64,000 nt of DNA from Rhodobiaceae bacterium (GTDB taxonomy: Bacteria > Pseudomonadota > Alphaproteobacteria > Puniceispirillales > Puniceispirillaceae). The translations under genes were made by a program, and so were the position numbers. Shown here in pieces: positions 2,335 to 60,903 of this stretch. Where the stretch lies: contig JAAZUU010000001.1 of the NCBI GenBank assembly GCA_018624035.1, forward strand, positions 4,080 through 68,079, written 5' to 3'. The stretch's first letter is position 1. Each line of letters starts with the position of its first letter. The notes below the pieces were generated by a model. That model saw only the letters and a list, made by a program, of their open reading frames with translations. It had not been told where the DNA came from and made no database searches.

Positions 2335-2372
2335 TGACCTTGCGGCGATAGAATCACGGCGGCGGTAGCATC

Positions 2373-2612
2373 ATGAAGATGGACCCGCAGGATTATCCGT
2401 TCCGGCGCGTGACGCATCGGCCGGGGTTTCTTGCCGGCAATGATGCGGCGGCGGAATGGTGCGCGCTCGGTTTCGGCTGGCTTTATGCCTTCAACCAAGA
2501 GGAGGCCGTCCATTGCTTCCGCCGCGCCACGCGCTTGGCGCCCCCTTGCCGACAGGGACATCACCTCATCCTGCTTTCGGTGTGCAGGGGCCATGAGCCG
2601 TCAATCCCGTGA
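2373..2612 (+). pseudogene. Possible remnant of the N-terminus of a TPR-like protein (gene fragment in an unusually long spacer)
   Basis: 79-aa ORF with AAEWCALGFGWLYAFNQEEAVHCFRRATRLAPPC. This resembles the N-terminal AxxxFxxGLxxLYxFNHEEAxxxFxxAxxLDPxCAMA motif of a family of about 500-600 aa, but the ORF ends after about 80 aa and I could not find a continuation in another frame. Confidence 0.25.
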
Positions 2613-2623
2613 CAAGCGCGATT

Positions 2624-2651
2624 TTGAAAAATCCTGTTGATCCCACTGCCC
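2624..2651 (+). promoter_or_regulatory. Shared upstream box, copy 2 (TTGAAAAATCCT-GTTGATCCCACTGCCC), 70 nt before the ureohydrolase start
   Basis: See copy 1. Both copies have the same orientation relative to the downstream plus-strand operon. Confidence 0.4.
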
Positions 2652-2720
2652 CGGCTGGGCCAGCCTTGCCGGTGAAGAAGCGACGGTCAGCCATGGCAGG
2701 CCGGTGCCTGGAGGAAGAGT

Positions 2721-3719: not shown

Positions 3720-3735
3720 AATCAAGGAACATGAC

Positions 3736-14657: not shown

Positions 14658-14703
14658 GGCACCCCACGCGCCCCTGCCGGGTCTGGAATCCTCGCGGCGC
14701 GAC

Positions 14704-40513: not shown

Positions 40514-40561
40514 ATCGTCAGTTCCCCAATTTCGCCAGGGCCGCATCATACCGAAAACTCG

Positions 40562-40578
40562 TTCGTATACAAATGAAA
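40562..40578. promoter_or_regulatory. 17-nt operator-like box, site 1 (TTCGTATACAAATGAAA), upstream of fpr
   Basis: 15/17 identical to site 3 (51492-51508). The core TTnGTATACnAA is a 10/12 palindrome. It lies 49 nt upstream of the preferred fpr ATG. Confidence 0.5.
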
Positions 40579-44564: not shown

Positions 44565-44586
44565 CAGCCGTCTTTCCCCAGAATTG

Positions 44587-44603
44587 TTGGTATGCGAATG
44601 AGC
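44587..44603. promoter_or_regulatory. Operator-like box, site 2 (TTGGTATGCGAATGAGC), in the hyuA / membrane-protein divergent spacer
   Basis: 13/16 identical to site 3 over TTnGTATnCGAATGA. Confidence 0.4.
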
Positions 44604-44610
44604 GCCGAAT

Positions 44611-44627
44611 ATTGACAAATTGTCAAT
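44611..44627. promoter_or_regulatory. Perfect 17-bp palindrome ATTGACAA-A-TTGTCAAT
   Basis: 8-bp arms around a single central base, 8 nt from operator-like site 2, in the hyuA / membrane-protein divergent spacer. Confidence 0.4.
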
Positions 44628-44676
44628 TGGGTTTCCAAATCTCCGCATGCTGTCGATATCCTCAGATTATGGGTTA

Positions 44677-46110: not shown

Positions 46111-46217
46111 AGTTTTGTCTGGACAAGACGTGTCGCTGGCCACAAGCTTGGCGCAGGGATCGAGATGAACAATCGGCATCGAAGCCGGGCTCGACTTCAA
46201 CTGCCAGGGAGATAGCC

Positions 46218-47570
46218 ATGACCAGAACAACTGAAAAACCTGCAGCCGAAAATGCGGTGACCAACGAGGCGGTGACCAATGAGGCGGTAAAACGTCCGAA
46301 CCGTCGCACGGCCCTGAAGACACTTGCCGCGACCACGGCGCTTGCTGCTGCCGCCAGCAGCATGCCGCTGTTTGGGCGCTACGGACAGGTGCAGAGCTCA
46401 GAGCCGATCAAGATCGGATTTCAGGTCCACCGCACCGGCATCGGTGCCGCCTATGGCCGCTGGTATGACCGCACCACCAAGGCTGCCGTCAAAAAGATCA
46501 ATGATGAGGGTGGTATCAACGGCCGCCCGGTCGAGATTGTCGCCGAGGATGACGGCACCGACCCCAAGCGGGGTGCCGAGGTTGTCGAGAAGATGGCGAC
46601 ACAACATGGATGCGATATCGCTTTCGGCACGCTGTTCAGCCATGTCGTCATCGGGTCCGCGCCGCGTGCCGGCGAGCTGAAAATCCCCTATTTCGTCGTG
46701 TCCGAGGGGCACCATGTCGCCAGCGGCATGCTGAACCGCTACACGCTCCAGCCGGGGATCACCGATGTGAAGAGCCAGGTCCAGGCGATGGCCCCGTTCG
46801 TCAACAGCACGCTTGGCAAGAAGGTCACGATGATCTATCCGGATTTCGCCTTCGGTCATGATCACCGCGATTATTTCTCGGCCGCGGTCGCGGCACAGGG
46901 CGGCGATGTGGTCGCCAAGATCGCGATTCCGCCGACCGAGACGTCCTTCACCAAATATTTCCCGAAGATCCCGCGCAACACCGATGTCATCTATCACGTC
47001 ATGGTCGGGCCGGCGGTGCTGACCTTCGTCAAGGAAATGGGCGAATTCTTCGGCAATTCGCGCCCCGAGATCTTCGGCTTCATCGACTCGCTCGAGGCGG
47101 TCGATCTTGCCAGTCCGGGCCTGGAGTTCCTCGAGGGCACCTATTTCTGGGAAGGCAATCCGCGCTATGCGCAGGCCAACCAGTCGGATTATGACAAGGC
47201 CTATCGCAAGGCTGTCGGCGTCGATGCCAATGGCGCCTCGGTATCCGATCCGAAGGATGTCTCGACCTATGCGCATATGTTCGGCTGCTGGGAGACGCTT
47301 CATATCGTCAAGGCCGGTATGGAGGCGTCGGGATATGCCGGTGCCGGTGATCGCGCCAAGCTGATCGAGGCGGTGGAATCGATGACCTCGATGCCGCATT
47401 CCTACGCGCACCCGCAGGGCGCGAAGGAGTTCAACGGCAAGACGCACCAGACCTTCGGCCATCAATATATCACCAAGGTCGAGAATGGCAGGCTGGTCCT
47501 CGCGCACACGACCTCGATCGAGGATACCTACTATCCCGATGAGACGGACTACACCAAGCAGTCCTTCTGA
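46218..47570 (+). CDS. Liv/Amide-type ABC transporter substrate-binding protein with a twin-arginine signal
   Basis: The ATG at 46218 follows AGGGAG. MTRTTEKPAAEN(AVTNE)x2AVKRPNRRTALKTLAATTALAAAASS is a Tat-like signal. The body is a Leu/Ile/Val-binding-protein fold (IKIGFQVHRTG...). Confidence 0.75.
   Translation: MTRTTEKPAAENAVTNEAVTNEAVKRPNRRTALKTLAATTALAAAASSMPLFGRYGQVQSSEPIKIGFQVHRTGIGAAYGRWYDRTTKAAVKKINDEGGINGRPVEIVAEDDGTDPKRGAEVVEKMATQHGCDIAFGTLFSHVVIGSAPRAGELKIPYFVVSEGHHVASGMLNRYTLQPGITDVKSQVQAMAPFVNSTLGKKVTMIYPDFAFGHDHRDYFSAAVAAQGGDVVAKIAIPPTETSFTKYFPKIPRNTDVIYHVMVGPAVLTFVKEMGEFFGNSRPEIFGFIDSLEAVDLASPGLEFLEGTYFWEGNPRYAQANQSDYDKAYRKAVGVDANGASVSDPKDVSTYAHMFGCWETLHIVKAGMEASGYAGAGDRAKLIEAVESMTSMPHSYAHPQGAKEFNGKTHQTFGHQYITKVENGRLVLAHTTSIEDTYYPDETDYTKQSF
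46254..46289. repeat. 15-bp tandem repeat x2.4 (GCGGTGACCAAyGAG), in frame in the n-region of the binding-protein Tat signal
   Basis: Read directly. It encodes AVTNE-AVTNE-AV upstream of the RR motif. Confidence 0.85.
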
Positions 47571-47668
47571 TTTTCGGGCTGACCTTCGGGCGCGGCGGGC
47601 GGTGATGCCGGTCGCGCCCCATTCAATTATTCCGGTCTGTTGAGGGGGAGTGGCGTTCGCCACAACTC

Positions 47669-48595
47669 ATGGAACTTGGTCCCTATCTGATCCTCGGTTT
47701 GCTTGAAGGGCTTGTCACGGCGGCGGTGCTGTCGCTGATGGCGCTTGGCCTGTCGCTGGTCTTCGGCGTCATGCGCGTCGTGAATGTCGCGCATGGCGAA
47801 TTCTTCATGGTCGGCGCGGTGCTTGCCTGGATCATCGCGAACGCCGTTGATTCGCATCCGGCGGTGAATTTTCTGGCTGCCCTGTTGCTGGCACCTCCGG
47901 CGACAGCGTTGCTGGCGGCGATCGCCGACAGGCTGGTGCTGAAACGGGTCGCCTATGACCCCGAGCGCACCATCGTCGCGACGATTGGCCTTCTCTATAT
48001 CATCCAGCAGGTCACGCTGATGACCTATGGCCCCGATGCCCGCCCGGTCGAGGCGCCTTTCAACCACCGCCTGTCGATCCCGTTTGTCGAATGGACCGAA
48101 AGCGGGATGGCGCTCTACTGGCCCTGGGGGCTTGGCACCACCAGCTACAAGCTTGCCGTGATCGGCGCGGCGGTGCTGCTTCTCGGGGCGATCTGGCTGT
48201 TGATGACGCGCACGCGGATTGGCCTGGTGATGCGGGCGACACAGCTCGACAGCGAGATGGCCAGGGCCTTCGCCGTTCCGGTGGACCGTGTCTATGCCGC
48301 GGTGTTCGGCCTTGGCGCCGGCCTCGCGGCGCTGGCGGGTGTTCTGATCGTGCCGATCCAGCAGGCGCATTACCTGATGGGGCATGACCCGCTGCTGCTG
48401 TCCTTCATCGTTGTCATCATCGGCGGGCTCGGCAGCCTTCCCGGCACCGTGGTGGCGGCACTTCTGATCGGCATCAGCGACGGCATGATCTCGGTCTTCT
48501 TCACGCCGACCCTTGCCAAGATCATCGCCACGCTCGGTGTTGCCTTCGTCCTGATTTTCCGCCCGCAGGGGCTGTTCGGGAGGAAAGGGCTGTGA
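47669..48595 (+). CDS. Branched-chain amino acid-type ABC permease (LivH-like)
   Basis: 308 aa: LILGLLEGLVTAAVLSLMALGLSLVFGVMRVVNVAHGEF. Confidence 0.8.
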   Translation: MELGPYLILGLLEGLVTAAVLSLMALGLSLVFGVMRVVNVAHGEFFMVGAVLAWIIANAVDSHPAVNFLAALLLAPPATALLAAIADRLVLKRVAYDPERTIVATIGLLYIIQQVTLMTYGPDARPVEAPFNHRLSIPFVEWTESGMALYWPWGLGTTSYKLAVIGAAVLLLGAIWLLMTRTRIGLVMRATQLDSEMARAFAVPVDRVYAAVFGLGAGLAALAGVLIVPIQQAHYLMGHDPLLLSFIVVIIGGLGSLPGTVVAALLIGISDGMISVFFTPTLAKIIATLGVAFVLIFRPQGLFGRKGL

Positions 48596-49551
48596 GCATG
48601 TTCCTCGGCAGCAATCTTCGCAAGTCATGGACGCTGCATATCGGCGTGATCATCCTGCTGTTCGCGTTGCAATTCATTCTGCCGGCCTATCATCATGGCA
48701 ATCTGGCGCGGATCATGGTGCTGGCCTGCTACGCCATGGGCTACAACATCCTGTTCGGCTATACCGGCCTGCTCAGCCTCGGTCACGCGCTGTTTTTCGC
48801 CGCCGGCATGTATGGCATGTCGCTGACCGTGCAGCATCTTGGATGGAGCGCCGGTCCGGCGCTGCTGGCTGGGCTGGCGGCAGGCTTTGCGGTGGCGCTT
48901 GCCATCGGGCTTCTGGCGCTGCGTACCGCCGGTGTCGCCTTCATGATCGTGACGCTGATGTTCGCCCAGGCAGGCTATCTCGCGGCGCTCTATTTCGGCG
49001 AATATACCCGTGGTGACGAGGGGTTCGTGATCCAGCAATCCTTCCGCCAGCTTGCCGGGGTCAATCTTGCCGATCCCACCAATCGCTATTTCGCCGCGCT
49101 GGCGCTGTTCGCGATCTGTGTGGTGGTCTCGTTGCGGGTCGTCCAGGCCGGATTCGGCCGGGTGCTTGTCGCCATTCGCGAGAATGAGGAACGCACCCGC
49201 ATGCTTGGCTACGACATCCACCGTCACAAGCTTGCCGCCGTTGTCCTGTCGGGAACAATGTCGGCCGCCGCCGGCGCCGCCTACGGGTTGCTGTTCGGCT
49301 ATGCCGGGGCGACGTTCGCGTCGGTCCAGTATTCGATCTTTCCGCTTCTCTGGGTGCTTCTCGGCGGGGCCGGCACGATCCTCGGGCCGTTTGTCGGCAC
49401 CCTGTTCATGTTCTATCTGATCGACCTGTCGAGCGAGCTGACAACCGCCTACATGCTGATCGCCGGCTTCGCACTCGTGATGCTGACGCTGTTCGCGCCG
49501 CAGGGCCTTGTCGGCGAGTTGCGCCGTCGCGCGCTGAGGTGGCTGCCATGA
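48592..49551 (+). CDS. Branched-chain amino acid-type ABC permease (LivM-like)
   Basis: 319 aa with a GTG start in a GTGA overlap: YNILFGYTGLLSLGHALFFAAGMY. Confidence 0.8.
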   Translation: MSMFLGSNLRKSWTLHIGVIILLFALQFILPAYHHGNLARIMVLACYAMGYNILFGYTGLLSLGHALFFAAGMYGMSLTVQHLGWSAGPALLAGLAAGFAVALAIGLLALRTAGVAFMIVTLMFAQAGYLAALYFGEYTRGDEGFVIQQSFRQLAGVNLADPTNRYFAALALFAICVVVSLRVVQAGFGRVLVAIRENEERTRMLGYDIHRHKLAAVVLSGTMSAAAGAAYGLLFGYAGATFASVQYSIFPLLWVLLGGAGTILGPFVGTLFMFYLIDLSSELTTAYMLIAGFALVMLTLFAPQGLVGELRRRALRWLP

Positions 49552-50261
49552 CGCTGTTGTCAACACGCGGCCTGAGCCGTAATTTCGGGGGCCTGAAGGC
49601 CGTCGACAATGTCGATTTCGATCTTCCCGCCGGCGAGGTGCGCGCCCTGATCGGCCCGAATGGCGCCGGCAAGACAACCTTTGTCGGCATGCTGTCGGGC
49701 CGGATTCCGGCGAGTGCCGGAACTGTGAGTTTCGACGGCCGGGACGTCACCATGATGCCGGCGCACCGGCGGATCCGAGCCGGCATGGCCTATACCTTCC
49801 AGATCACCTCGGTGTTCAGCCGGCTGCCGGTGGCGGAAAATGTCGCTTTGGCGCTGCGCTGGCGGACCGGGGACGATTTGGCGGCAACAGACCGCCAAGT
49901 TGCCGAGGCGCTGGATCGGGTGGGAATCGCCGACCGTGCCGACCAGCTTGCCGGTGACCTCAGCTACGGGCATCAGCGCCTCCTGGAAATCGCCATGGGG
50001 CTGAGCCAGCAGCCGCGCCTGCTGATCCTCGACGAGCCGACGCAGGGTCTCGCCGACAGCGAGATTGTCGATTTCGTGGCGCTGATCCGCGGTCTGGCCG
50101 GCGACATGACGATTCTGCTGATCGAGCACAATATCAACGTTGTGATGCAGACGGCCGACGCCATCACCGTTCTCAATTTCGGATCGGTCCTTGCCAGCGG
50201 CACGCCGTCTGAAATCAGGAACAACGCGGCGGTGCAGGCCGCCTATCTGGGGACAGGCTGA
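49548..50261 (+). CDS. ABC transporter ATP-binding protein (LivG-like)
   Basis: The ATG at 49548 is in an ATGA overlap with the LivM-like stop. GPNGAGKTT, LSYGHQRLLEIA, LILDEP. Confidence 0.85.
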   Translation: MTLLSTRGLSRNFGGLKAVDNVDFDLPAGEVRALIGPNGAGKTTFVGMLSGRIPASAGTVSFDGRDVTMMPAHRRIRAGMAYTFQITSVFSRLPVAENVALALRWRTGDDLAATDRQVAEALDRVGIADRADQLAGDLSYGHQRLLEIAMGLSQQPRLLILDEPTQGLADSEIVDFVALIRGLAGDMTILLIEHNINVVMQTADAITVLNFGSVLASGTPSEIRNNAAVQAAYLGTG

Positions 50262-50956
50262 TGCTGAATGTCGAAAATCTGTCCTCGGGATATGGCGATA
50301 TCAGGGTACTTCATGACGTGTCCTTCACTGTCGAGGGCGGCGAGATCGTCTGCCTTCTGGGGCGCAACGGCGCCGGCAAGACCACCTGCCTGAAAACCAT
50401 CATGGGGCTGTTGCGGGCGCGGTCAGGCTCTGTCACATGCGGTGATGTGGAGGTGTCGCGCCTGCCGGCGAACGAGGTGCCGCGCCATGGCATCGGTTAT
50501 ATCCCGCAGGGGCGGCGCCTGTTCGCCGAACTGACGGTGGCCGAGAATCTCGAGATCGGGCTGATGGTGCGTGGCAAGGGACGTGAGACGCGTGACCGCG
50601 TGCTGGAGATGTTCCCGCGCCTTGGCGAAAGGTTGAACCAGCGTGCCGATACCCTTTCGGGCGGTGAGCAGCAGATGCTGGCCACCGGTCGGGCGCTGTG
50701 TATCGAGCCGTCGGTGCTGTTGCTGGATGAGCCGACCGAGGGGCTGCAGCCCTCGATGATCGAACAGATCAGACAGGCGGTCACAGCGCTTCGGGACCGC
50801 GGGGTGGCCATCCTTCTGGTTGAACAGCGGGTCGATGCGGTGCTGTCGATCGCCAACCGTGTGGTGTTTCTCGAGAATGGCCGCAGCCACCCGGCCATCG
50901 ATGCCGGGGAGCTGAAGACAAACCCCAACCTTCTGCATCGTTTTATCGGGGTGTAA
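50261..50956 (+). CDS. ABC transporter ATP-binding protein (LivF-like)
   Basis: 231 aa, TGATG junction: GRNGAGKTT, LSGGEQQMLATGRAL, LLLDEP. Confidence 0.85.
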   Translation: MLNVENLSSGYGDIRVLHDVSFTVEGGEIVCLLGRNGAGKTTCLKTIMGLLRARSGSVTCGDVEVSRLPANEVPRHGIGYIPQGRRLFAELTVAENLEIGLMVRGKGRETRDRVLEMFPRLGERLNQRADTLSGGEQQMLATGRALCIEPSVLLLDEPTEGLQPSMIEQIRQAVTALRDRGVAILLVEQRVDAVLSIANRVVFLENGRSHPAIDAGELKTNPNLLHRFIGV

Positions 50957-50986: not shown

Positions 50987-51424
50987 TCAGATGAGCCGGT
51001 CCAGAAGCTTGATCAGCCGGTCCTGTTCCTGTTTGTCAAGCGGTGCCAGCGTCCGGCGCGTCACCTCGGACGCCTTGGCGACAAGCTCATCATGCAGATC
51101 GCGTCCCGCCTCGGTCGGAGTCAGCATCAGCCGCCGGCGGTCGCCGACAAGCGGCGATGCATCGACAAGGCCGCGGGCGCGCAGCCGGTCGACAACACCC
51201 TTGATTGTCGCGACATCCATCGAGGTCAGTCGCCCGAGCTCGTTCTGCGAGGTCTGACCAAGCTCGCAAAGTTTTGCCAGGGCGGCGAACTGCGTTGGGG
51301 TCATTTCGGGGATCAGTGACGAAAAAATCGCGATATGGCGCTGCATCACGCGGCGCATGATGAAGCCGACCTGCCGTTCCAGAAGATATGTGTTGCGAGC
51401 TGTCACGCTGTGTCCTCCGGGCAT
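50987..51424 (-). CDS. MarR-family transcriptional regulator (NicR-like by context)
   Basis: LLERQVGFIMRRV...MTPTQFAALAKLCELGQTSQNELGRLTSMDVATIKGVVDRLRARGLV is a winged-helix MarR core. I prefer the ATG at 51424 because the codons between 51424 and the ATG at 51481 are rich in A/T-ending rare codons. The start is uncertain. Confidence 0.7.
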   Translation of the reverse strand: MPGGHSVTARNTYLLERQVGFIMRRVMQRHIAIFSSLIPEMTPTQFAALAKLCELGQTSQNELGRLTSMDVATIKGVVDRLRARGLVDASPLVGDRRRLMLTPTEAGRDLHDELVAKASEVTRRTLAPLDKQEQDRLIKLLDRLI

Positions 51425-51491
51425 GCGACGACATGGCGTCGACTGCGTGCCTTTGTCAGTTGACACTATCAGGACCCCCATGCACAGTCTA

Positions 51492-51508
51492 TTTGTATAC
51501 GAATGAAA
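51492..51508. promoter_or_regulatory. Operator-like box, site 3 (TTTGTATACGAATGAAA), in the marR / Mo-hydroxylase divergent spacer
   Basis: It lies between the MarR gene and the FAD-subunit gene, 27 nt before the 51535 ATG. It is an AT-rich island in a GC-rich context. Confidence 0.5.
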
Positions 51509-51534: not shown

Positions 51535-52380
51535 ATGAATTATCTGCGACCTCATCTTCTCGAAGACGCGTTGCAATGGCTGGCGACGAAGCGGCCGCTT
51601 GTCATGGCCGGCTGTACAGATATCTACCCGACCACACAGGCACCGTCGCTTGACGGGCCGCTTCTCGACATTACCGCCCTTGAGGGCCTGCGCGGCATCA
51701 CTGTGGCGGACGGGTGGCGGCGCTTTGGCGCGGCGACAACCTGGGATGATGTGCTGCAATCCAACCTGCCACCTTCCTATCGCATGCTGAAACAGGCGGC
51801 GCGCGAGATCGGCGCGGTGCAGATTCAGGTCAGCGGCACCATTGGCGGCAATCTGTGTACCGCCTCGCCAGCGGCCGACAGCGTGCCATGCCTGATGGCA
51901 CTTGATGCCGAAGTTGAACTTGCCTCGGTCGGCGGCAGTCGACGCCTGCCGCTCGCCGACTTCCTGACCGGGCCGCGGCAGACGGCGTTGCGGCCAGATG
52001 AACTTCTTGTCGCCATCCATGTGCCGCGGCATGCCGAGGCCGGCCGGTCGGGCTTTGCCAAGCTTGGCGCGCGCCGCTATCTGGTGATTTCGATCGCCAT
52101 GGCCGCCGTGCGGCTGGAGGTCGAGGATGGGCGCATTACAGGCGCGGCGGTGTCGGTTGGTGCCTGTGCGCCGGTCGCGTCCCGCCAGACCGGCCTGGAA
52201 TCACGCCTTGTCGGACGCCGGCCTGACGACATTGACGCGCTGGCCACCGAGGCGATGCTGATGATCGCCGACAGCCTCTCGCCGATTGATGATGTACGGG
52301 CCTCGGCCGGCTATCGGCGGCAGGCGGCGGCCGAACTTGCCTGGCGGAGCATCCGGTCACTTTGCAGGGAGGCGGCGTGA
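51535..52380 (+). CDS. Molybdenum hydroxylase FAD-binding (medium, CoxM/XdhB-like) subunit
   Basis: The ATG at 51535 gives MNYLRPHLLEDALQWLATKRPLVMAGCTDIYP...GGNLCTASPAADS, the FAD_binding_5 pattern. Confidence 0.75.
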   Translation: MNYLRPHLLEDALQWLATKRPLVMAGCTDIYPTTQAPSLDGPLLDITALEGLRGITVADGWRRFGAATTWDDVLQSNLPPSYRMLKQAAREIGAVQIQVSGTIGGNLCTASPAADSVPCLMALDAEVELASVGGSRRLPLADFLTGPRQTALRPDELLVAIHVPRHAEAGRSGFAKLGARRYLVISIAMAAVRLEVEDGRITGAAVSVGACAPVASRQTGLESRLVGRRPDDIDALATEAMLMIADSLSPIDDVRASAGYRRQAAAELAWRSIRSLCREAA

Positions 52381-55139
52381 TGGACGGCGTTTCCGAGTCC
52401 GGCACACAGCTTGATTTCACGGTGAATGGCGAGGCGGCGAGGCTCCGCTGCGCCCCGTCGACGCGGCTCAGCGATCTGCTTCGTGAACAGCTTGGCCTTC
52501 GTGGGACAAAGGTCGGATGCAATGCCGGCGATTGCGGCGCCTGCACCGTGCTTCTTGATGGCCGGCCGGTCTGTGCCTGTCTGGTGCCCGCCGGCCAAGT
52601 CGAGGGGCGGCATGTCGAAACCGCGGAATCGCTTGCCGGCCCGGACAGTGTTCTCTCGAACCTTCAGCAGGCCTTTTTGCGGCATGGGGCGGCACAATGC
52701 GGGATCTGCACCCCCGGCATGATGATGGCGGCGACGGCGTTGCTTCGCGGCACCCCGTCGCCGGATCGCGGTCAGGTCGAGGACGCTATCGGCGGCGTGC
52801 TGTGCCGCTGTACCGGCTATGCGAAGATCGTCGATGCCATCATGGATGCGGGAGCTGGCGCGATTTCGCCTCCGTCGCCCGATGCCGGCGCTGCGGTCGG
52901 TGCCGCCGTATATCGTCTTGACGGCCACGCCAAGGTCAATGCCACCGAAAAGTTCGGTGCTGATTCCTGGCCGCAGGACGCGCTTCTGGTGCGGGCCGTC
53001 CGGTCACCGCATTTTCTTGCCGATTTCAGCTTTGGCGATCTTGCCGGGTGGCAGCAGGACCGGCCCTTTGCCACCGCCATCGTCACGGCGGCGGACATTC
53101 GCGGCGTCAATGCCTTCGGCGTGATCCCGCCCTTCGCCGACCAGCCGGCGCTTGCCGAGACGACCGCGCGGTTCCGCGGCGAGGCGGTGGCGCTGGTGAT
53201 CGGCACGGCCGAGGAGCTTGTCGCCGCCAATCTGTCGGATTTTCCGGTCGTCTGGCAGGAACGCGATCCGGCGCTGACGGTCGAGGCGGCGCGTCGCCCG
53301 GGTGTGGCGCAGCTTCATGAGACGCGACCCGACAATCTGCTGATCACGGGCAAGGTGAAAAGCGGCGACGGCGCGGCCGGGCTGTCGAGTGGCGATGTGC
53401 GGGTCAGCGCCGCCATCGAGACGGCCTATGTCGAGCATGCGCCGATCGAGCCCGAGGCCGGTTGTGCCTGGATGGAGGGTGATGTTCTGGTCATCTCGGC
53501 CTGCACGCAGGCACCGGTGATGGATCAGGAGGACACGGCCAGGATCCTGGGATTGCCGCTTGATCGGGTGCGGATCATTCCGGCCGCTGCCGGCGGCGGG
53601 TTCGGCACCAAGCTGGATGTCTCGCTGCAGCCGCTTCTGGGGCTGGCGGTGATGAGGACGGGCCGTCCGTGCCGGATGGTCTATTCGCGTCAGGAATCAA
53701 TGATCTCGACAACCAAACGTCACCCGGCGGCGATGCGCGGACAGCTTGCCGCGACGCAGGATGGCCGGCTTGCCGGCATGGTGTTCGAGGGTGAATTCAA
53801 CACTGGCGCCTATGCCAGCTGGGGGCCGACGGTGGCGACGCGGGTGCCGATCCACGCCTCTGGCCCGTACAATGTTCCGCATTACCTTGCCGAGGCGCAT
53901 GCCATCCATACCAACGGGCCGGTGTCGGGTGCCTTTCGGGGTTTTGGCGTGCCGCAGGCGACGATCCTGCAGGAAGTGCTGATGGACAGGCTGGCGGGCG
54001 AGCTCGGCCTCGACCGTCTGGACTTCCGGCGTCGCAACGCGCTTGTCGATGGTGACCGCACCGTTTGCGGCCAGCAGGTGCATGGTGTGGGGATTGCCGA
54101 ATGTCTGGATGCGCTGGTGCCGGCCTGGCAGGCGGCGCAGGCGCGCGCCGCGACGTTCAATGCCAATGGCGGAACAACGCGCCGGGGTGTCGGTGTCGCG
54201 TCATGCTGGTATGGGTGCGGCAACACCGCGTTGTCGAACCCGTCGACCATTCGCCTCGGTATCACCGCCGATGGCCGGCTGCGGCTGCATCAGGGGGCGA
54301 CCGATATCGGCCAGGGGTCGAACACCGTAATCACGCAGATATGTGCCGACGCGCTTGGCATGCCGCTTGCCGATTTCGAGCTTGTCGGCCCGGATACCGC
54401 GATCACGCCTGATTGCGGCAAGACCTCGGCCTCGCGGCAGACCTTCATCACCGGCAAGGCGGCCGAACTGTCCGGACGCCGCCTTCGTGCCGACATCCTG
54501 CGCCTCAGCAATATGGAGGATGAGTCCGAAATCCGGATCGAGGATACATGCATCGTCATCACCGGCGCGGCGGACCGGCAGCGGATCGACCTTGCGACGA
54601 TGCCGGTCGATGAATTCGGCTATGTGATGCGCGCCGAGGAAACCTACGATCCGCCAACGGTGCCGCTTGATGCCGACGGCCAGGGCGAGCCCTATGCCGT
54701 CTATGGCTATGGGGCGCAGGTGGTTGAGCTGGAGGTTGACCTGAAACTTGGCACGGTCAGGGTCCTGCACATCACCGCGGTGCATGATCTGGGACGGGTG
54801 ATCAACCCGCTGCTGGCCACCGGGCAGATCGAGGGTGGCATCGCGCAGGGGCTCGGCATGGCGCTGATGGAGGAATATATTCCCGGCCGCACCGAGAATC
54901 TGCATGATTATCTGATCCCGTCATGCGGCGACATGCCGGAGATCGAGACCATTTTCATCGAGAAGCCCGATCCGGTCGGCCCGATGGGGGCAAAGGGGCT
55001 TGGCGAGCATGTGCTGATCCCGACGGCGCCAGCGATCCTGAACGCCATTCATGACGCGACCGGCGCCTGGATTGACCAATTGCCGGCGCTGCCACATCGC
55101 GTTATGGCGGCCATCCGCGCCGCTGATCAGGGTCATTAG
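52380..55139 (+). CDS. Fused [2Fe-2S] small subunit plus molybdopterin-binding large subunit of a xanthine-dehydrogenase-family hydroxylase (candidate nicotinate dehydrogenase)
   Basis: The ATG at 52380 overlaps the upstream stop (TGATG). The N-terminus has GCNAGDCGACTV and QCGICTPGMMM...CRCTGY. The rest is an aldehyde-oxidase/XDH a/b-hammerhead plus Moco domains (...GGGFG..., ...AKGLGE...). Confidence 0.75.
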   Translation: MDGVSESGTQLDFTVNGEAARLRCAPSTRLSDLLREQLGLRGTKVGCNAGDCGACTVLLDGRPVCACLVPAGQVEGRHVETAESLAGPDSVLSNLQQAFLRHGAAQCGICTPGMMMAATALLRGTPSPDRGQVEDAIGGVLCRCTGYAKIVDAIMDAGAGAISPPSPDAGAAVGAAVYRLDGHAKVNATEKFGADSWPQDALLVRAVRSPHFLADFSFGDLAGWQQDRPFATAIVTAADIRGVNAFGVIPPFADQPALAETTARFRGEAVALVIGTAEELVAANLSDFPVVWQERDPALTVEAARRPGVAQLHETRPDNLLITGKVKSGDGAAGLSSGDVRVSAAIETAYVEHAPIEPEAGCAWMEGDVLVISACTQAPVMDQEDTARILGLPLDRVRIIPAAAGGGFGTKLDVSLQPLLGLAVMRTGRPCRMVYSRQESMISTTKRHPAAMRGQLAATQDGRLAGMVFEGEFNTGAYASWGPTVATRVPIHASGPYNVPHYLAEAHAIHTNGPVSGAFRGFGVPQATILQEVLMDRLAGELGLDRLDFRRRNALVDGDRTVCGQQVHGVGIAECLDALVPAWQAAQARAATFNANGGTTRRGVGVASCWYGCGNTALSNPSTIRLGITADGRLRLHQGATDIGQGSNTVITQICADALGMPLADFELVGPDTAITPDCGKTSASRQTFITGKAAELSGRRLRADILRLSNMEDESEIRIEDTCIVITGAADRQRIDLATMPVDEFGYVMRAEETYDPPTVPLDADGQGEPYAVYGYGAQVVELEVDLKLGTVRVLHITAVHDLGRVINPLLATGQIEGGIAQGLGMALMEEYIPGRTENLHDYLIPSCGDMPEIETIFIEKPDPVGPMGAKGLGEHVLIPTAPAILNAIHDATGAWIDQLPALPHRVMAAIRAADQGH

Positions 55140-55151
55140 GGGAGAGCGAGC

Positions 55152-56624
55152 ATGGCCAAGGAGGTCGTCGAGAAGATCCGCTGCGATGCCTGTCCGGTGA
55201 TGTGCTATATCGCCGATGGCAACAGCGGTGCCTGTGACCGCTACGCCAATCATGACGGCCAGATCGTCCGTCTTGACCCGCTGACGATCTTTGACCGGAG
55301 GCTGTCGGCCGGCGATACGGTGAAACCGTTTCTTGGTGCCGGTTGGGATGGCGGCCTCGGGTCCGAGACAGACCTGTTCGTGACCGCCATCGGTGCCGGC
55401 ACGACCTATCCCGATTACAAGCCGGCGCCCTTTGTTGTCAGCCGTGATATCGAGGGGGTCGATTTCGTGACGGTGGTGACCGAGGCCATCTTCTCCTATT
55501 GCGGGGTGAAGGTGAAAATCGACACCGACCGGCATCTTGGCAAGGAAGGCGCCGTGGTGCGCTGCGATGGCGAGGCTGTCGGGCTGGTCATCACCTCGGA
55601 ATATGGCTCGCAGATGCTGTCGCTTGGCGGGGTCGATCATCTGACCGGCGGGTCGAAGAAGGAAGGCCGGGTCACCTGCGACACGCTCATGCAGCTGTGC
55701 AACAAACAGGCTGTCGAACTGACGATCGATGACGGCGCGACGGTTACCGTCCAGGCCGGCAAGCCACCGATTGTCGATGGCATCGTAGAGAGCCGCATGC
55801 GGGTCGGCTGCGGGTCGGCGACGATCGGCATGTTCGCCTCGCAATGGAAGGGGCTTGTCGATGAGGTGGTTGTCGTCGATGACCACATCACCGGCGTGGT
55901 GTCCGAACATCAGGCCGGCAAGGTCATCGACTGGCAGGAAACCGGCATCAGGATCAAGGGACGCCGTTCGACCCCGGGGCGCTATTTTCAGGTGGCCGAA
56001 CCCGGTCTTGGATGGGGTGGCACCGATATCGAGGACCCGCTGACCATACTTGGCGACTGGGATGCGAAGAAGGGCGCCCGCCCGGGACTGACATTGCTGA
56101 TGGTGTCGACGACCGGCGAGCAGTCTGGCTATTTCACCCTGGATGATGATCTGGTGCCACAGCCGGCGCCGCTTCCCGAATCGCTGCGCCCGACGGTTGA
56201 TCTGATCACCGAGAATTGCGAGCCGGCCCAATGCACGGTGCTGTTCATGGGCGGGGCTGGCGGATCGCTTCGCGCCGGCGCGACGAGGAACCCGGTGAAG
56301 CTGACCCGCTCGGTGCAGAAACGGCATACCACCGTGTCCTGCGGCGGTGTCGAGGCGTTCGTCTGGCCCGGCGGTGGGATCACGATCATGGTCGATGTGC
56401 TGAACCTTCCCGACAATGCCTTCGGCTATGTGCCGACGCCGGCGCTGGTCGCGCCGCTGGAATTCACCGTTCGCCGTGACGACTATGTGGAGCTTGGCGG
56501 ACATGGCGACGCCGTGCGAAGCATCGCCGAGGCGATCGAGCAGGGAAGCGAATATGGCGCGAATGCACAGATCATGGGGCCCGGGGCAAAGACGGTGCTG
56601 ACCGACAATGATGGCGAGTCCTGA
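55152..56624 (+). CDS. Fe-S protein resembling 6-hydroxynicotinate reductase (Hnr-like)
   Basis: 490 aa with GGGGAGAG SD. The N-terminal motif is C-x2-C-x3-C-x9-C (KIRCDACPVMCYIADGNSGAC). I recall proteins of this size and N-terminus being annotated as 6-hydroxynicotinate reductase in alphaproteobacteria, next to UPF0280 and DUF1185 genes. The assignment needs an HMM/BLAST check. Confidence 0.5.
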   Translation: MAKEVVEKIRCDACPVMCYIADGNSGACDRYANHDGQIVRLDPLTIFDRRLSAGDTVKPFLGAGWDGGLGSETDLFVTAIGAGTTYPDYKPAPFVVSRDIEGVDFVTVVTEAIFSYCGVKVKIDTDRHLGKEGAVVRCDGEAVGLVITSEYGSQMLSLGGVDHLTGGSKKEGRVTCDTLMQLCNKQAVELTIDDGATVTVQAGKPPIVDGIVESRMRVGCGSATIGMFASQWKGLVDEVVVVDDHITGVVSEHQAGKVIDWQETGIRIKGRRSTPGRYFQVAEPGLGWGGTDIEDPLTILGDWDAKKGARPGLTLLMVSTTGEQSGYFTLDDDLVPQPAPLPESLRPTVDLITENCEPAQCTVLFMGGAGGSLRAGATRNPVKLTRSVQKRHTTVSCGGVEAFVWPGGGITIMVDVLNLPDNAFGYVPTPALVAPLEFTVRRDDYVELGGHGDAVRSIAEAIEQGSEYGANAQIMGPGAKTVLTDNDGES

Positions 56625-57561
56625 CATATCCGGTGTTGGCCGGCCATCCGCCATGGCGGGGTTTCAGGCGGCGCTGATCGGCCGCCATCAGCGGCTCCAT
56701 ATCCAGCATGGCCCCATCGATCTGGTGATTGACGCGGACGGGTCGGGGCGCAACGCGCTGTTCGAACGCGCTGTCGACGCGGCGATGCCGGTTCTCTCGA
56801 TCCTTGCGGACGAGCTGGACGGCCTGCGCGCGCCATATGCGGCAGGACGCCGGTTTGGCGGGTCGGTGGCGCGCCGCATGCAGACTGCCTGCCGGGTGGC
56901 CGGTGACAGGTTTGTCACCCCCATGGCCGCGGTGGCGGGGTCGGTGGCCGATCACGTTCTGGCGGCAATGCTGGATGATGAGGCGGCACGGGACAGCAGC
57001 CGGATCAGCGTGAATAACGGTGGTGATATCGCCTTCTGGACCGCGGAGGGCGCCACGACGCGCGCCCTGATCGCCGGTCTTCCGGCAGGCATGCTGACGC
57101 TCACCGGACCGACATGCTGGCGCGGTATGGCCAGCTCGGGATGGGGCGGGCGCAGTCACTCGCTTGGCATAGCCGACAGCGTGACGGTGCTTGCCAAAAG
57201 TGCCGCGCTGGCCGATATCGCGGCAACTCTGATTGCCAATAATGTCGACCTGCCGGGCCACCCGATGATCACGCGGCAGCCGGCGCATGACCTTGACCCG
57301 GCAAGCGACCTTGCCAACAGGATGGTGACGACCGGCGTGCCGTCCCTTGCCGATGACGAGATTGCGGCCGCGCTGGCCGCCGGGCGCGTGACAGCCTCCG
57401 AACTCACGCAGCGGCATGGCATCGCCGGCGCGGTTCTGGTGCTGCAGGGCCGGATCGAGACAGTCGGTCTCGCCGCCGGCCTGCTTGACGGCCAGCCAGC
57501 CCACGCCGACAGGCCAGATAACATCAAGGCAGATCAAATCGGGGAGGATTACCATGCCTGA
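56608..57561 (+). CDS. UPF0280 family protein (ApbE-like fold family)
   Basis: 317 aa. 17-nt overlap with the Hnr-like gene. RLHIQHGPIDLVIDADG is the motif I associate with UPF0280. Confidence 0.55.
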   Translation: MMASPDISGVGRPSAMAGFQAALIGRHQRLHIQHGPIDLVIDADGSGRNALFERAVDAAMPVLSILADELDGLRAPYAAGRRFGGSVARRMQTACRVAGDRFVTPMAAVAGSVADHVLAAMLDDEAARDSSRISVNNGGDIAFWTAEGATTRALIAGLPAGMLTLTGPTCWRGMASSGWGGRSHSLGIADSVTVLAKSAALADIAATLIANNVDLPGHPMITRQPAHDLDPASDLANRMVTTGVPSLADDEIAAALAAGRVTASELTQRHGIAGAVLVLQGRIETVGLAAGLLDGQPAHADRPDNIKADQIGEDYHA

Positions 57562-58135
57562 CTTCACGCTTCGCAAGACAATGAGTTTTGTCGAGACAAT
57601 CCACCACGAGAATGGCCCGCCGCCAGAGACACCGCGCCGCCGCGCCGCCATTGTCGCCGTCGTCGCCAACCCGTTCGCCGGCACCTGGCAGGAGGATCTG
57701 CAATCGGCGATGGATGATCTGAAACAGCTTGGCCTTGCCATGACCGACGAGTTGATCGGGCTTCTTGGCGGGATCGAGGGGATTGACGGCTATGGCAAGG
57801 CGGCGCTTGCCGGCGAGGGGGGCGAACTGGAACATACCGCGCTGTGGCATGTCCCCGGCGGCTATTCGATGCGCGAGCGTCTTGGCGAGGCGAAGGCCAT
57901 CGTGCCATCGGCGATGAAGGTCGGCGGTCCCGGCACACCGATCGATATTCCGCTTGGCCATATCAACGCCGCCTATGTGCGGAGCCATTTCGATGCCATG
58001 GAGGTGCGGCTTGCCGATGCGCCGCGTGCCGGCGAGATCATGTTCGCGCTTGCGATGTCGCGCGGGCCGCGAATTCATAACCGCATGGGCGGGCTGACCG
58101 TCGATGAGGTCACCGGCAAGGACGGGCTGCGATAG
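57554..58135 (+). CDS. Amino-acid-synthesis family protein (DUF1185 / AA_synth)
   Basis: The ATG at 57554 follows GGGGAGGA and overlaps the UPF0280 gene by 8 nt. MPDFTLRKTMSFVETIHHENGPPPETPRRRAAIVAVVANPFAG resembles the DUF1185 N-terminus. Confidence 0.55.
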   Translation: MPDFTLRKTMSFVETIHHENGPPPETPRRRAAIVAVVANPFAGTWQEDLQSAMDDLKQLGLAMTDELIGLLGGIEGIDGYGKAALAGEGGELEHTALWHVPGGYSMRERLGEAKAIVPSAMKVGGPGTPIDIPLGHINAAYVRSHFDAMEVRLADAPRAGEIMFALAMSRGPRIHNRMGGLTVDEVTGKDGLR

Positions 58136-58274
58136 CGCGAGGCAAGAGGCCAGAATGCGGCACCGTCATGTTCCGCCATCACCGGGCACCATTACTCTGC
58201 GTCCCCATGTTGCGTCAGTCCGGGCGGCATTCTAAACTCCATGGATCAGTTGCTCGGCTGGGAGGCATGAAGAG

Positions 58275-58871
58275 ATGAAGGCGCTTGTTGTAATCGACCC
58301 GCAGATTGATTTCTGCCCGGGCGGCGCGCTTGCCGTCGCCGACGGTGACAGCATCATGCAGCCCATCAACGCGATGATGGATGCGTTCGACATGGTGATC
58401 CTGACCCAGGACTGGCACCCGCAAGGCCATTCCAGCTTTGCCTCGTCGCATGAGTGCGCGGCGCCCTTCACCCTGACCGAGATGCCCTATGGGCCGCAGG
58501 TGCTGTGGCCCGACCATTGTATTCAGGGAAGCGAGGGGGCGGCGTTCCATGCGGCGCTTGACACCGATCGTGCTGACGCGGTGATCCGCAAGGGCACCAA
58601 TCCGGCGGTTGATTCCTATTCGGCCTTTTTCGAGAATGACAAGGCGACCGTGACCGGGCTTGCCGGGTTGCTCCGCGAGCGCGGCTGCGAGGACCTGACG
58701 ATGGTCGGGCTGGCGACTGACTACTGCGTTGCCTGGTCGGCACTGGACGGGGTGGCGAACGGCTTTCGGGTCGACGTCAGACTGCCGGCCTGCCGGGCGA
58801 TCGACCTTGACGGGTCGCTCGACAAGGCGCTTGCCGACATGCGCGCGGCCGGTGTGACATTGGTGGAATAG
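58275..58871 (+). CDS. pncA: Nicotinamidase/pyrazinamidase (isochorismatase family)
   Basis: 198 aa: MKALVVIDPQIDFCPGGALAV (catalytic Asp context), ...IRKG..., GLATDYCV (catalytic Cys context). Confidence 0.8.
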   Translation: MKALVVIDPQIDFCPGGALAVADGDSIMQPINAMMDAFDMVILTQDWHPQGHSSFASSHECAAPFTLTEMPYGPQVLWPDHCIQGSEGAAFHAALDTDRADAVIRKGTNPAVDSYSAFFENDKATVTGLAGLLRERGCEDLTMVGLATDYCVAWSALDGVANGFRVDVRLPACRAIDLDGSLDKALADMRAAGVTLVE

Positions 58872-58893: not shown

Positions 58894-59442
58894 ATGACCG
58901 AAAACACTGAAACGGGAAGCGTGCCCAATGCCGGCGAGGCACGATCGCCGGTGGCAAGCCTCGTCATCACCTTTTTCGGTGGCGCGCTGATCGGTGCCGG
59001 CCTTTACTGGGCGGCCGGTGATCTGTGGTCCGAGACCCTGCGCGGTGGCATGGATCACGGCAGCATGGCGGGTGGCGATATGATGAAGGACGGCATGCCG
59101 CATGAGCACGGGATGCTGATGGTTGATGACTGGGCGAACCCGCCAGCCATCGACGCCGAAATCTTCAAGGATCCCGAGAGCGGCTGGAACCTGCATGTGA
59201 TGACGACAAATTTTGCCTTCAACGCGGCCAAGGCCGGCTTTGACAATGTCGAGGGCGAGGGGCATGCCCATATCTATGTGAATGGCGACAAGCTTGGGCG
59301 TCTCTATGGTGACTGGTACCATATTGGCGGCCTGTCCGCCGGAACGCATGATGTGAAGATATCGCTGAACGCGAATGACCACAGCGCGCTGCATCGCAAT
59401 GGCGAGGAGCTTGCCGCGCATGTGACGATCATCGTCGAGTGA
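58894..59442 (+). CDS. Membrane-anchored periplasmic Met/His-rich protein with a DUF4399-like C-terminal domain
   Basis: 182 aa. A TM anchor (LVITFFGGALIGAGLYWAA) is followed by GGMDHGSMAGGDMMKDGMPHEHGMLM. The C-terminus GEGHAHIYVNG...YHIGGLSAGTHDVKISLNANDH resembles the GHHHLxID / LxxGxHTLxLxxxDxxH pattern. Confidence 0.45.
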   Translation: MTENTETGSVPNAGEARSPVASLVITFFGGALIGAGLYWAAGDLWSETLRGGMDHGSMAGGDMMKDGMPHEHGMLMVDDWANPPAIDAEIFKDPESGWNLHVMTTNFAFNAAKAGFDNVEGEGHAHIYVNGDKLGRLYGDWYHIGGLSAGTHDVKISLNANDHSALHRNGEELAAHVTIIVE

Positions 59443-59545: not shown

Positions 59546-60163
59546 TCATGAACGTCGCGGGAAGGCCATTTCCGGCTTATAGCTGGCGAAGGAGTCCAGG
59601 GTCTGGCGGTTGCATTGTTCCTGCCGGTCGGTGCCGGGCTGGACCGCGGTGATGACCGGAAATCTGGCCCGGTAACCGGCGGTGCGCTCGTTGTCCTCCA
59701 TGGCGATGGTGGCGATTCCGGCGACAATACCGCCCTGACGCTCGACCAGCCGGATCGCCCCGTCCATCGTGCCGCCTGTCTCGACCCACTGGTCCACCAG
59801 AAGGACGCGCGTGCCGCTGGCAAAGGCCGGGGTGCGCATCTCCATATCCTGTGTTCGGCCGGAATAGTTTGTGAAGGACACCGCGTCGGTGTCGACGCAC
59901 AGCTTGCCGGCCTTGCGGATGGGAAGGAAGCCGACGCCGATCCGCGTCGCCAGCGCGGCGCCCAGGACAAATCCCATGGCGTCGAGCCCGGCCACCACGT
60001 CGCATTTCACCCCCTCGAGCTCTGCGGTGAGATCGTCAAGGAGCTGCGTGAAGGCGTCGCCGTTGATATAGATCGAGGTGGGGTCGAGCCAGGCGAATTT
60101 CTCACCTTTCGTGTTCGGTGACATGATGTCGAGATACCAGCGTTCGGCGTTCGTGTGCGTCAT
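59546..60163 (-). CDS. Type I phosphoribosyltransferase (adenine-PRTase-like)
   Basis: 205 aa with PRPP loop VLLVDQWVETGGT. ATGA overlap with the upstream TIM-barrel gene. Confidence 0.65.
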   Translation of the reverse strand: MTHTNAERWYLDIMSPNTKGEKFAWLDPTSIYINGDAFTQLLDDLTAELEGVKCDVVAGLDAMGFVLGAALATRIGVGFLPIRKAGKLCVDTDAVSFTNYSGRTQDMEMRTPAFASGTRVLLVDQWVETGGTMDGAIRLVERQGGIVAGIATIAMEDNERTAGYRARFPVITAVQPGTDRQEQCNRQTLDSFASYKPEMAFPRRS

Positions 60164-60903
60164 GATGTGGCTCCCATTTCACGGCATATGGTGACAAGGC
60201 GCGCCAGACGCGCCGGGTCGATCCTGTAGAAATCACCCTCGATGTTAATCCCGGTCGCGACCATAAAACAATCGACCATGTCATAGTCGCGGGCATTGTC
60301 GGGCGTAATCCCGGAGGCAAGGGCAATCGGCCTGCCGGGAAGTGACTGGCGGAACCGGTCGAGCTTGCCGATATCGGCCGATTTGCCGGTGGCGATCCCC
60401 GATGTCGTCACCACATCCATATAATTGCCGGCGATGGCGGCGGCGCGCGCATGGTCCTGCGGGTCGACAGGCCGCTGTTTCTTGAAAGCCGTGCCACCGA
60501 AATACAGACCCTCCCAACCGCAGCTCTGGCGGATCGCGGCGATCTCGTCGGCCTCGGTCTGGCTGTCGGCGCGCTCGTCGATGCGTGCGTCATCGGCCCA
60601 ATAGGCGTCGATCGGGGTGCCGCGCGCGCCGAGTTCCGCCAGGATGGGAAACGCTTTCAGGCCTGTCACCGCCAGAAAATTCAGCCCGATCCACAGATCC
60701 GGATAGCGGGCGCGAATCGCCTCGATGATGGGCAGAAACGGCTCGACCCCGAAATCATGATTGATCAGAAAACACCCTTTCAGACCGGCATTGACCACAT
60801 GGTCGATATTGGCCGCTGTCGAGCTCTCGTCAAGGACATGGATGACAGGCAGGATAACTGGGCCGGGACTGTCGAATCTTGCATGGAATTCAGATATTTG
60901 CAT
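60160..60903 (-). CDS. BtpA/SgcQ-like TIM-barrel (phosphate-binding) protein
   Basis: 247 aa: ...VVTTSGIATGKSADIGKLDRFRQSLPGRPIALASGITPDNA...FMVATGI resembles the C-terminal phosphate-binding strands of BtpA-family proteins. Confidence 0.4.
   Translation of the reverse strand: MQISEFHARFDSPGPVILPVIHVLDESSTAANIDHVVNAGLKGCFLINHDFGVEPFLPIIEAIRARYPDLWIGLNFLAVTGLKAFPILAELGARGTPIDAYWADDARIDERADSQTEADEIAAIRQSCGWEGLYFGGTAFKKQRPVDPQDHARAAAIAGNYMDVVTTSGIATGKSADIGKLDRFRQSLPGRPIALASGITPDNARDYDMVDCFMVATGINIEGDFYRIDPARLARLVTICREMGATS

Follow-up and report, generated by a model that had tools for sequence, protein, structure and literature searches.

The region at 39.6-58.9 kb of the 64-kb window (the whole stretch of DNA analysed here, from contig JAAZUU010000001.1 of a Rhodobiaceae bacterium) is probably a single nicotinate/nicotinamide catabolic regulon of a marine SAR116-type alphaproteobacterium, in which a two-subunit protein of the hydantoinase type (HyuAB), and not an enamidase, would open the ring of 6-oxo-1,4,5,6-tetrahydronicotinate (THON), the expected product of 6-hydroxynicotinate reductase (Hnr). 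What was observed, and what carries this assignment, is the gene content, the homology of the products, the synteny, a sequence motif common to the transcription units and an either/or pattern of HyuAB and enamidase in other genomes. Genes were called from a listing of open reading frames (ORFs) together with Pfam and NCBIfam profile searches; those on which the argument turns are the following.

51535-52380, plus strand: FAD subunit of an XDH-family Mo-hydroxylase, a predicted nicotinate 6-hydroxylase (Pfam FAD_binding_5 and CO_deh_flav_C; relatives of 280-285 aa).
52380-55139 (alternative start 52362), plus strand: fused 2x[2Fe-2S] and molybdopterin subunit of the hydroxylase (Fer2, Fer2_2, MoCoBD_1, MoCoBD_2).
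55152-56624, plus strand: 490-aa Hnr homolog (no Pfam match; assigned from named homologs and alignment).
56653-57561 (alternative start 56608), plus strand: UPF0280/ApbE-superfamily protein (NCBIfam PRK04334, 279 bits).
57554-58135, plus strand: AA_synth/DUF1185 protein (Pfam E 2e-64; chorismate-mutase-like fold).
58275-58871, plus strand: nicotinamidase PncA (NCBIfam PRK11609, 209 bits against a cut-off of 174).
50987-51406, minus strand: MarR-family regulator (NicR-like; Pfam MarR), divergent from the catabolic operon; its 139-aa start was picked by its ribosome-binding site and by how long related proteins are.
42420-44564 (start refined), minus strand: HyuA-type subunit (Pfam Hydant_A_N, Hydantoinase_A and Hydant_A_C).
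40678-42423, minus strand: HyuB-type subunit (Pfam Hydantoinase_B, E 5.9e-155) of the predicted ATP-dependent THON lactamase.
39659-40513 (start refined to the ATG at 40513), minus strand: Fpr-type ferredoxin-NADP+ reductase (FNR; PRK10926, E 1.4e-41; Pfam FAD_binding_6 and NAD_binding_1).

To judge from its relatives and its genomic associations, HyuAB most likely acts on THON as an ATP-dependent lactamase. Profile scores place the pair within the caprolactamase superfamily but apart from caprolactamase itself: HyuA matched the NCBIfam model of the caprolactamase alpha subunit with 481 bits and HyuB, as its best match, that of the beta subunit with 312 bits, both below the cut-off of 1000 bits for the CapAB equivalogs (NF050156 and NF050157). 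The closest solved relatives (for HyuA, PDB 7HK5, 1.6e-120, and 6YRA_A, 1.1e-102; for HyuB, 6YRA_B, 5e-76, and the N-methylhydantoinase 7HK5, 1.3e-64) are ATP-dependent cyclic-amide hydrolases, the acetone and acetophenone carboxylases being more distant. OplAB, which belongs to the same HyuA/HyuB family, hydrolyses six-membered delta-valerolactams (PMC11033972). We found no literature that links a hydantoinase or oxoprolinase to nicotinate catabolism.

The association of HyuAB with nicotinate genes was examined in a survey of 86 Hnr loci from other genomes (85 in some of the counts), each with its neighbourhood of ±10 kb; the loci were gathered with a narrower alignment (A2), since the first one (A1) was too diverse. 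Orthologs of HyuAB (62-69% identity for HyuA, 74-80% for HyuB) were present in 27 of the 86 loci, in no fewer than six gene orders, versus an enamidase near Hnr in only four, and in plasmids of Neorhizobium and Pleomorphomonas (L086 and L088) hnr, the UPF0280 gene, the AA_synth gene, hyuA and hyuB form one operon. A reciprocal test started from HyuB and covered 80 metagenome loci; by our own count from the resulting table, nicotinate-cluster genes were carried by about 27 of the 32 loci with enough upstream DNA, and enamidase by none of the 80. Enamidase was thus absent from all of the approximately 107 HyuAB-containing loci examined (27 and 80). Of the 26 plasmids that bear Hnr, 16 have an enamidase and the other 10 a HyuB ortholog, with no plasmid carrying both or neither, and both types occur within the genus Rhizobium as well as among genera of the Rhodobacterales (roseobacters). 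Clustering of the ORFs of 85 loci in search of a hidden conserved hydrolase returned, besides HyuAB and FNR, only transporters and regulators. In three further loci (L103, L105 and L107) HyuAB orthologs (84-85% identity for HyuB) are followed by a distant Mo-hydroxylase (26-32% identity to that of the window) with no Hnr visible; this may reflect a variant layout or another pathway.

In the window itself, tblastn with a proteobacterial enamidase from L085 and with the E. barkeri enzyme (PDB 2VUN) gave no match at E<=1e-5, and Pfam scans of all main ORFs revealed no Amidohydro family. The L085 query is genuinely homologous to enamidase (E 2.4e-111 to PDB 2VUN), while a 385-aa amidohydrolase of Shimia (L001), located 8 kb from Hnr, was rejected as an enamidase because it has no similarity to 2VUN. 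The same Pfam scans of the main ORFs detected no family of the NicC (FAD-monooxygenase) or NicX type, and the sole dioxygenase of the window is of the intradiol type (8190-9059). An earlier note on this DNA, made from the sequence alone, had likewise found neither enamidase nor NicC/NicX in the window, and these absences stand. It had also concluded that no recognisable ring-opening enzyme was present, which no longer holds now that HyuAB is linked to the cluster by synteny, an operator-like motif and strict either/or occurrence with enamidase; its naming of the neighbouring HyuAB as a candidate for the steps after THON is supported.

The operator-like motif emerged from a comparison of promoters as an 18-bp palindrome with the consensus TCATTTGTATACGAATGA and the conserved core TCATT-N8-AATGA. 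Its occurrences in the window, with the further genes that they flank, are as follows.

51489-51506: operator-like site CTATTTGTATACGAATGA, two mismatches, 46 nt 5' of the ATG of the FAD subunit.
40559-40576: operator-like site TCGTTCGTATACAAATGA, one mismatch, 46 nt 5' of the FNR start.
44584-44601: weaker operator-like site TTGTTGGTATGCGAATGA, four mismatches, in the intergenic region between the divergent genes for HyuA and a membrane protein.
44620-46110, plus strand: polytopic membrane protein of about 480 aa, without a Pfam or NCBIfam family, preceding the transporter genes.
46068-50956, plus strand: LIV-type ABC transporter (Pfam; substrate-binding protein, two permeases and two ATPases), putatively for nicotinate uptake and kept beside the cluster.

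Two sites with no more than three mismatches were found in the window versus 0.01 expected from shuffles, and a relaxed pattern gave exactly three window sites versus 0.00 expected, this pattern having been derived after the sites were seen. When up to four mismatches were allowed, 59 matches were found in 1.7 Mb of loci, nearly all of them 5' of the FAD-subunit gene (30 loci) or between the HyuA and FNR genes (16 loci); one lies between enamidase and FNR in a Sulfitobacter plasmid (L087), so that enamidase and HyuAB fill equivalent regulatory slots. Since the palindrome is common to them, the hydroxylase/Hnr operon, the transporter, hyuAB and fnr look like one regulon, and a MarR-type repressor binding the palindrome probably controls all of these transcription units. 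In a 6.45-Mb genome (L002) the palindrome also stands 5' of an aldehyde:ferredoxin oxidoreductase (AFOR_N/AFOR_C) and ferredoxin pair (13025-15172), directly after AA_synth; through this pair the aldehyde product could be oxidised and Hnr be resupplied with reduced ferredoxin. An initial guess at the operator, TGTCA-N2-TGACA at 51455 together with ATTGACAAATTGTCAAT at 44611, was dropped, as the two lack mirror equivalence and conservation elsewhere. The latter element (44611-44627, in the hyuA/membrane-protein intergenic region, beside the weaker operator-like site) is a perfect palindrome, ATTGACAA-A-TTGTCAAT, which puts a -35-like TTGACA hexamer on each strand. More than 30 Hnr or HyuAB loci encode a homolog of the membrane protein immediately 5' of the gene for the substrate-binding protein, and the LIV-type transporter recurs with Hnr in the survey; 'putative nicotinate ABC transporter' is the name used for it in PMC3511419.

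Several facts weigh against this assignment. The site at 44584 departs from the consensus at four positions, and the relaxed pattern that includes it was formed post hoc. In about half of the surveyed Hnr loci the ±10 kb around Hnr contain no enamidase and no HyuAB, HyuAB lying just past this range in gene orders like that of the window, and HyuB homologs of 70-85% identity also occur without visible cluster genes (L103, L122, L125, L140 and plasmids of Sinorhizobium medicae). Related strains, with 12 Sulfitobacter plasmids among them, inflate the counts behind the either/or pattern. Finally, the window comprises 64 kb and not a whole genome, and an enamidase could be encoded elsewhere. From such facts a conventional route can be constructed, in which an enamidase encoded outside the window opens THON and HyuAB has another job within the regulon, either the hydrolysis of a different lactam or imide or a downstream ATP-dependent carboxylation or decarboxylation; the membership of carboxylases in the HyuAB family speaks for it as well, as do the limited part of the genome in view, the many Hnr loci with neither enzyme nearby and the HyuB homologs away from Hnr. 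We nevertheless consider this route rather unlikely, and likewise the presence of an enamidase just outside the window or elsewhere in the host genome, given that each of the 26 Hnr plasmids has exactly one of the two enzymes and that none of the approximately 107 HyuAB loci has an enamidase. Moreover, the L087 enamidase gene, divergent from fnr with the operator between them, sits where hyuA does in loci of the Mesorhizobium type, and HyuAB is nearer to lactam and hydantoin hydrolases than to carboxylases.

By its sequence relationships, the 490-aa protein is an Hnr-family homolog of a shortened type. It has full-length homologs by the thousands in a large protein database, those at 75-87% identity bearing the NCBI name 6-hydroxynicotinate reductase, and the nearest genome match was a metagenome-assembled genome of Candidatus Puniceispirillaceae (SAR116; L005), whose Hnr is 93% identical. 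An exhaustive HMMER search returned relatives of about 510 aa at 34-43% identity, some of them named Hnr, with the closest at E about 1e-100; these longer forms possess an extra N-terminal 2x[4Fe-4S] ferredoxin domain (CxxCxxCxxxCP, twice), and those with this domain align to the window protein at 39-43% identity (E about 1e-100). In an alignment of 19 family sequences (30-76% identity) the cysteines C11-x2-C14-x3-C18-x9-C28 are invariant and C220 nearly so; the 2x[4Fe-4S] domain is absent from the window Hnr and its alphaproteobacterial relatives in this alignment, while the Cx2Cx3Cx9C motif and C220 stay. In an anaerobe-type locus (L089, 7217-11560) a RidA gene and two enamidase paralogs are followed by a 519-aa Hnr with 2x[4Fe-4S], with an XDH-type enzyme adjoining. 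This location of an Hnr of the ~510-aa form, right behind two enamidase homologs, connects the family with the THON pathway, and the RidA gene hints that handling of an enamine or imine product is a real pathway step. UPF0280 and DUF1185 were not found in this locus. The homolog in the Bradyrhizobiaceae cluster (strain SG-6C) is 42% identical to E. barkeri Hnr, and nicotinate supports growth of that strain, 6-hydroxynicotinate appearing transiently on the way (PMC3511419). The assignment uses the named homologs, the ~510-aa forms and L089 as proxies for the E. barkeri sequence. The AlphaFold model of the window protein (pLDDT 83, pTM 0.81) gave only noise in a Foldseek search against the PDB (best E 0.03, TM <=0.13) and no structural match; Hnr is thus a biochemically characterised enzyme family without a solved structural relative there.

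The absence of a ferredoxin domain in the short Hnr directs attention to the FNR gene. Its orthologs (49-64% identity) occur in both HyuAB-type and enamidase-type Hnr clusters, and FNR therefore goes with Hnr and not with the ring-opening enzyme. From this distribution, FNR would feed electrons to an Hnr that has no ferredoxin domain of its own; a search of the window for stand-alone ferredoxin motifs gave none.

The layout of the operon at 51535-58871 is tight, the genes overlapping by 1-8 nt or being separated by a 12-nt gap, with the exception of 139 nt ahead of pncA. The fused hydroxylase subunit has the motifs GCNAGDCGAC at residue 52, QCGICTPG at 112 and CRCTGY at 148. The earlier description of six genes, a divergent MarR gene and these cysteine motifs was borne out in full by the ORF, Pfam/NCBIfam and motif searches, as was the Hnr-like nature of the 490-aa protein by its NCBI-named homologs at 75-87% identity and the alignment to the ~510-aa forms. 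The arrangement is not due to chance, because the same genes recur in the 86 Hnr loci: about 75 of them have UPF0280 and about 70 the Mo/FeS fusion, AA_synth and the FAD subunit each occur in about 65, and a MarR gene in about 60 of 85, with pncA near the cluster in about 35. The reading of a reductive, THON-type nicotinate/nicotinamide catabolic cluster given in that note is in agreement with the Hnr homology, the gene content and PncA, but the combination of Mo-hydroxylase and Hnr in aerobic Proteobacteria is not new: the core pathway reading is correct and already in the literature and the databases. A proteobacterial cluster of Mo-hydroxylase, Hnr, UPF0280, DUF1185 and ABC-transporter genes was published by Shettigar in 2012, citing Alhapel 2006, as conserved in A. 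caulinodans, B. japonicum, R. palustris and strain SG-6C (PMC3511419), and NCBI already names Hnr.

The nicotinate specificity of the XDH-family Mo-hydroxylase is suggested by this context; its score is far under every NCBIfam equivalog cut-off. In two plasmid loci (L085 and L086) a NicAB-type nicotinate dehydrogenase fills the slot of the XDH-type hydroxylase, and this replacement, together with PncA in the operon, supports nicotinate as the substrate. The cluster might instead act on another N-heterocyclic carboxylate, its Hnr-like protein reducing a different hydroxylated ring; the low hydroxylase scores, by which the sequence does not set the substrate, and the want of a characterised member among the short Hnr of proteobacterial type would allow for it. 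Such a substrate is, however, quite improbable in view of the NicAB-type enzyme in L085 and L086, of PncA in the operon or adjoining it in about 35 loci, and of the growth on nicotinate, with transient 6-hydroxynicotinate, of a strain that has this cluster type (PMC3511419). For the aerobic reductive nicotinate pathway the biochemistry comes from Azorhizobium and dates from 1992, and the genes have been assigned only by homology to E. barkeri. THON was reportedly recognised as an intermediate in A. caulinodans by Kitts in that year, which also speaks against a different substrate.

Two orphan families, UPF0280 and DUF1185, accompany Hnr. The UPF0280 protein (precomputed Pfam PF27030; JGI name 'ApbE superfamily') was modelled with a pLDDT of 89.5, and Foldseek returned DVU1097 and then only ApbE/Ftp/FmnB proteins (probability ~1.0, TM 0.45-0.53), at a sequence identity of just 9-14%. 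According to this model the protein has an ApbE-like flavin-transferase fold. It possesses an invariant NNGGD motif and a TSG-like motif, both of which we take to resemble those of ApbE, and its gene follows that of Hnr in the great majority of the surveyed loci. E. barkeri Hnr is reported (Alhapel 2006) to carry a covalently bound flavin. UPF0280 is, on the modelled fold, most likely a flavin transferase or maturation factor for Hnr. Two observations count against this role: the canonical ApbE target motif [S/T]GA[S/T] is not conserved in Hnr across the 19-sequence alignment, where GAGTT (residues 81-85) is variable and T439 is the only invariant Thr, and the L089 locus is without UPF0280, so that flavin transfer by it is not universal for Hnr.

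The closest structures to the DUF1185 protein are BB2672 and SPO0826 (PDB 3BYQ, 8.7e-52, and 2QTP, 7.9e-47). For this family the structural-genomics paper (PMC2954203) took the ABC transporter genes nearby, labelled 'branched-chain amino-acid' (SPO0822-0825), as pointing to 'amino-acid metabolism'. Because those transporter genes are the nicotinate cluster's own in this context, the PF06684 name 'Amino acid synthesis' is probably a misnomer and misleading; DUF1185 possibly handles the enamine or the 2-formylglutarate product. In an Agrobacterium vitis plasmid (NZ_CP118261.1, match H50) that has no Hnr match, an enamidase-like amidohydrolase (40% identity) is annotated beside an 'amino acid synthesis family protein', which suggests that DUF1185 and amidohydrolases are also paired outside nicotinate clusters. 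That DUF1185 or UPF0280 is itself the missing ring-opening hydrolase, as the earlier note had proposed with both lying immediately 3' of Hnr in most loci and neither having an experimentally known function (PMC2954203; PMC3511419), is highly improbable: both coexist with a genuine enamidase (L064, L080, L085 and L087, DUF1185 even in two copies) and so do not substitute for it, UPF0280 appears to have the flavin-transferase fold, and the small fold of DUF1185, similar to chorismate mutase, bears no hydrolase signature.

With HyuAB as the lactamase, our inferences on the catalytic activities, on electron flow, on flavinylation and on which regulator acts are as follows. PncA would convert nicotinamide to nicotinate, and the XDH-family Mo-hydroxylase (FAD subunit and fused FeS-Moco subunit) would convert the latter to 6-hydroxynicotinate. 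Hnr is expected to reduce this compound to THON with electrons that probably come from NADPH via the co-regulated FNR, its flavin most likely being installed or matured by the ApbE-like UPF0280. The six-membered lactam of THON would then be opened by HyuAB at the expense of ATP, giving 2-(aminomethylene)glutarate and further 2-formylglutarate and NH3. DUF1185 may act on a small molecule in a step that the two cluster types have in common, where it would possibly hydrolyse an enamine or imine or else decarboxylate 2-formylglutarate, and the MarR-type repressor would act on the 18-bp palindromes of all the transcription units. A wider scenario is put forward more tentatively than the regulon itself, as one that may or may not hold: in many Alphaproteobacteria a dedicated THON lactamase of the HyuAB family would have displaced the Fe-Zn enamidase, the short Hnr would be a distinct form fed by NADPH and FNR and supplied with flavin through a cytoplasmic UPF0280, and DUF1185 would act on the enamine or on 2-formylglutarate.

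If true, a THON lactamase would be a new enzyme activity and would provide ATP-dependent lactamases with a natural, physiologically defined substrate, which is of interest for nylon-monomer biocatalysis. If HyuAB opens THON, the form of the pathway that prevails among the Alphaproteobacteria sampled here is missing from pathway databases (27 HyuAB versus 4 enamidase Hnr loci). The orphan families UPF0280 and DUF1185/AA_synth acquire concrete, testable functions, and turnover of vitamin B3 by marine bacteria of the SAR116 and roseobacter groups is indicated.

Several other genes of the window were noted. Directly 3' of pncA lies a 182-aa His/Met-rich ORF (58894-59442, plus strand) without a family match, which is kept (48-78% identity) only in the SAR116-type relatives L003-L005 and L008. 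It is followed by a phosphoribosyltransferase-domain gene and a weak BtpA-like gene (59546-60903, minus strand), convergent with the cluster. At 662-4593 the genes for an aconitase X large subunit and a swivel-domain protein, an arginase-family gene and a DUF1989 gene seem to form a small catabolic cluster of their own that has nothing to do with the nicotinate genes.

Compared with known systems, the predicted pathway is nearest in its first steps to that of E. barkeri (NdhFSLM, Hnr and enamidase; Alhapel et al., 2006), where an XDH-family Mo nicotinate hydroxylase with an FAD subunit and 2x[2Fe-2S] is likewise followed by Hnr making THON. The window Hnr has the Cx2Cx3Cx9C cysteines invariant across the family, but is without the N-terminal 2x[4Fe-4S] domain, whereas the E. 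barkeri-type enzyme is reported to carry two [4Fe-4S] and one further Fe-S cluster on one polypeptide. The FeS and Moco subunits of the window are fused and not split into NdhS/L/M, the B12-dependent downstream genes are missing from the window cluster, and FNR, HyuAB, UPF0280 and DUF1185 are added; the enamidase, too, is absent from the window. The cluster of A. caulinodans, Bradyrhizobium and SG-6C (PMC3511419, Fig. 4) resembles that of the window in its aerobic hosts and in the expected downstream route via glutarate; it is described as covering the first three steps, enamidase included, while the window has HyuAB and FNR under the same operator and no enamidase.

In contrast to the nic cluster of P. 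putida (NicAB, NicC, NicX, NicD, NicF and NicR), with which it has in common a MarR-type regulator divergent from the catabolic genes and hydroxylation at C6 as the first step, the window encodes neither the NicC monooxygenase nor the NicX dioxygenase by Pfam scans, its hydroxylase is of the XDH type with an FAD subunit and not a cytochrome-c-containing NicAB, and the ring would be reduced instead of being cleaved oxidatively. The UPF0280 model has the fold of ApbE/Ftp/FmnB, yet the protein is predicted to be cytoplasmic, is only 9-14% identical to them and would serve an Hnr without a conserved canonical target motif. HyuAB of the window, lastly, has the two-subunit Hydantoinase_A/B architecture of CapAB (6YRA), OplAB, N-methylhydantoinase (7HK5) and 5-oxoprolinase. 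Enzymes of the CapAB/OplAB type drive the hydrolysis of stable five- to seven-membered cyclic amides with ATP (PMC8453981, PMC11033972); unlike the HyuA/HyuB lactamases, the window pair stands in a context of nicotinate catabolism, and its proposed substrate, THON, is an unsaturated carboxylated delta-lactam of a kind not reported for the family.

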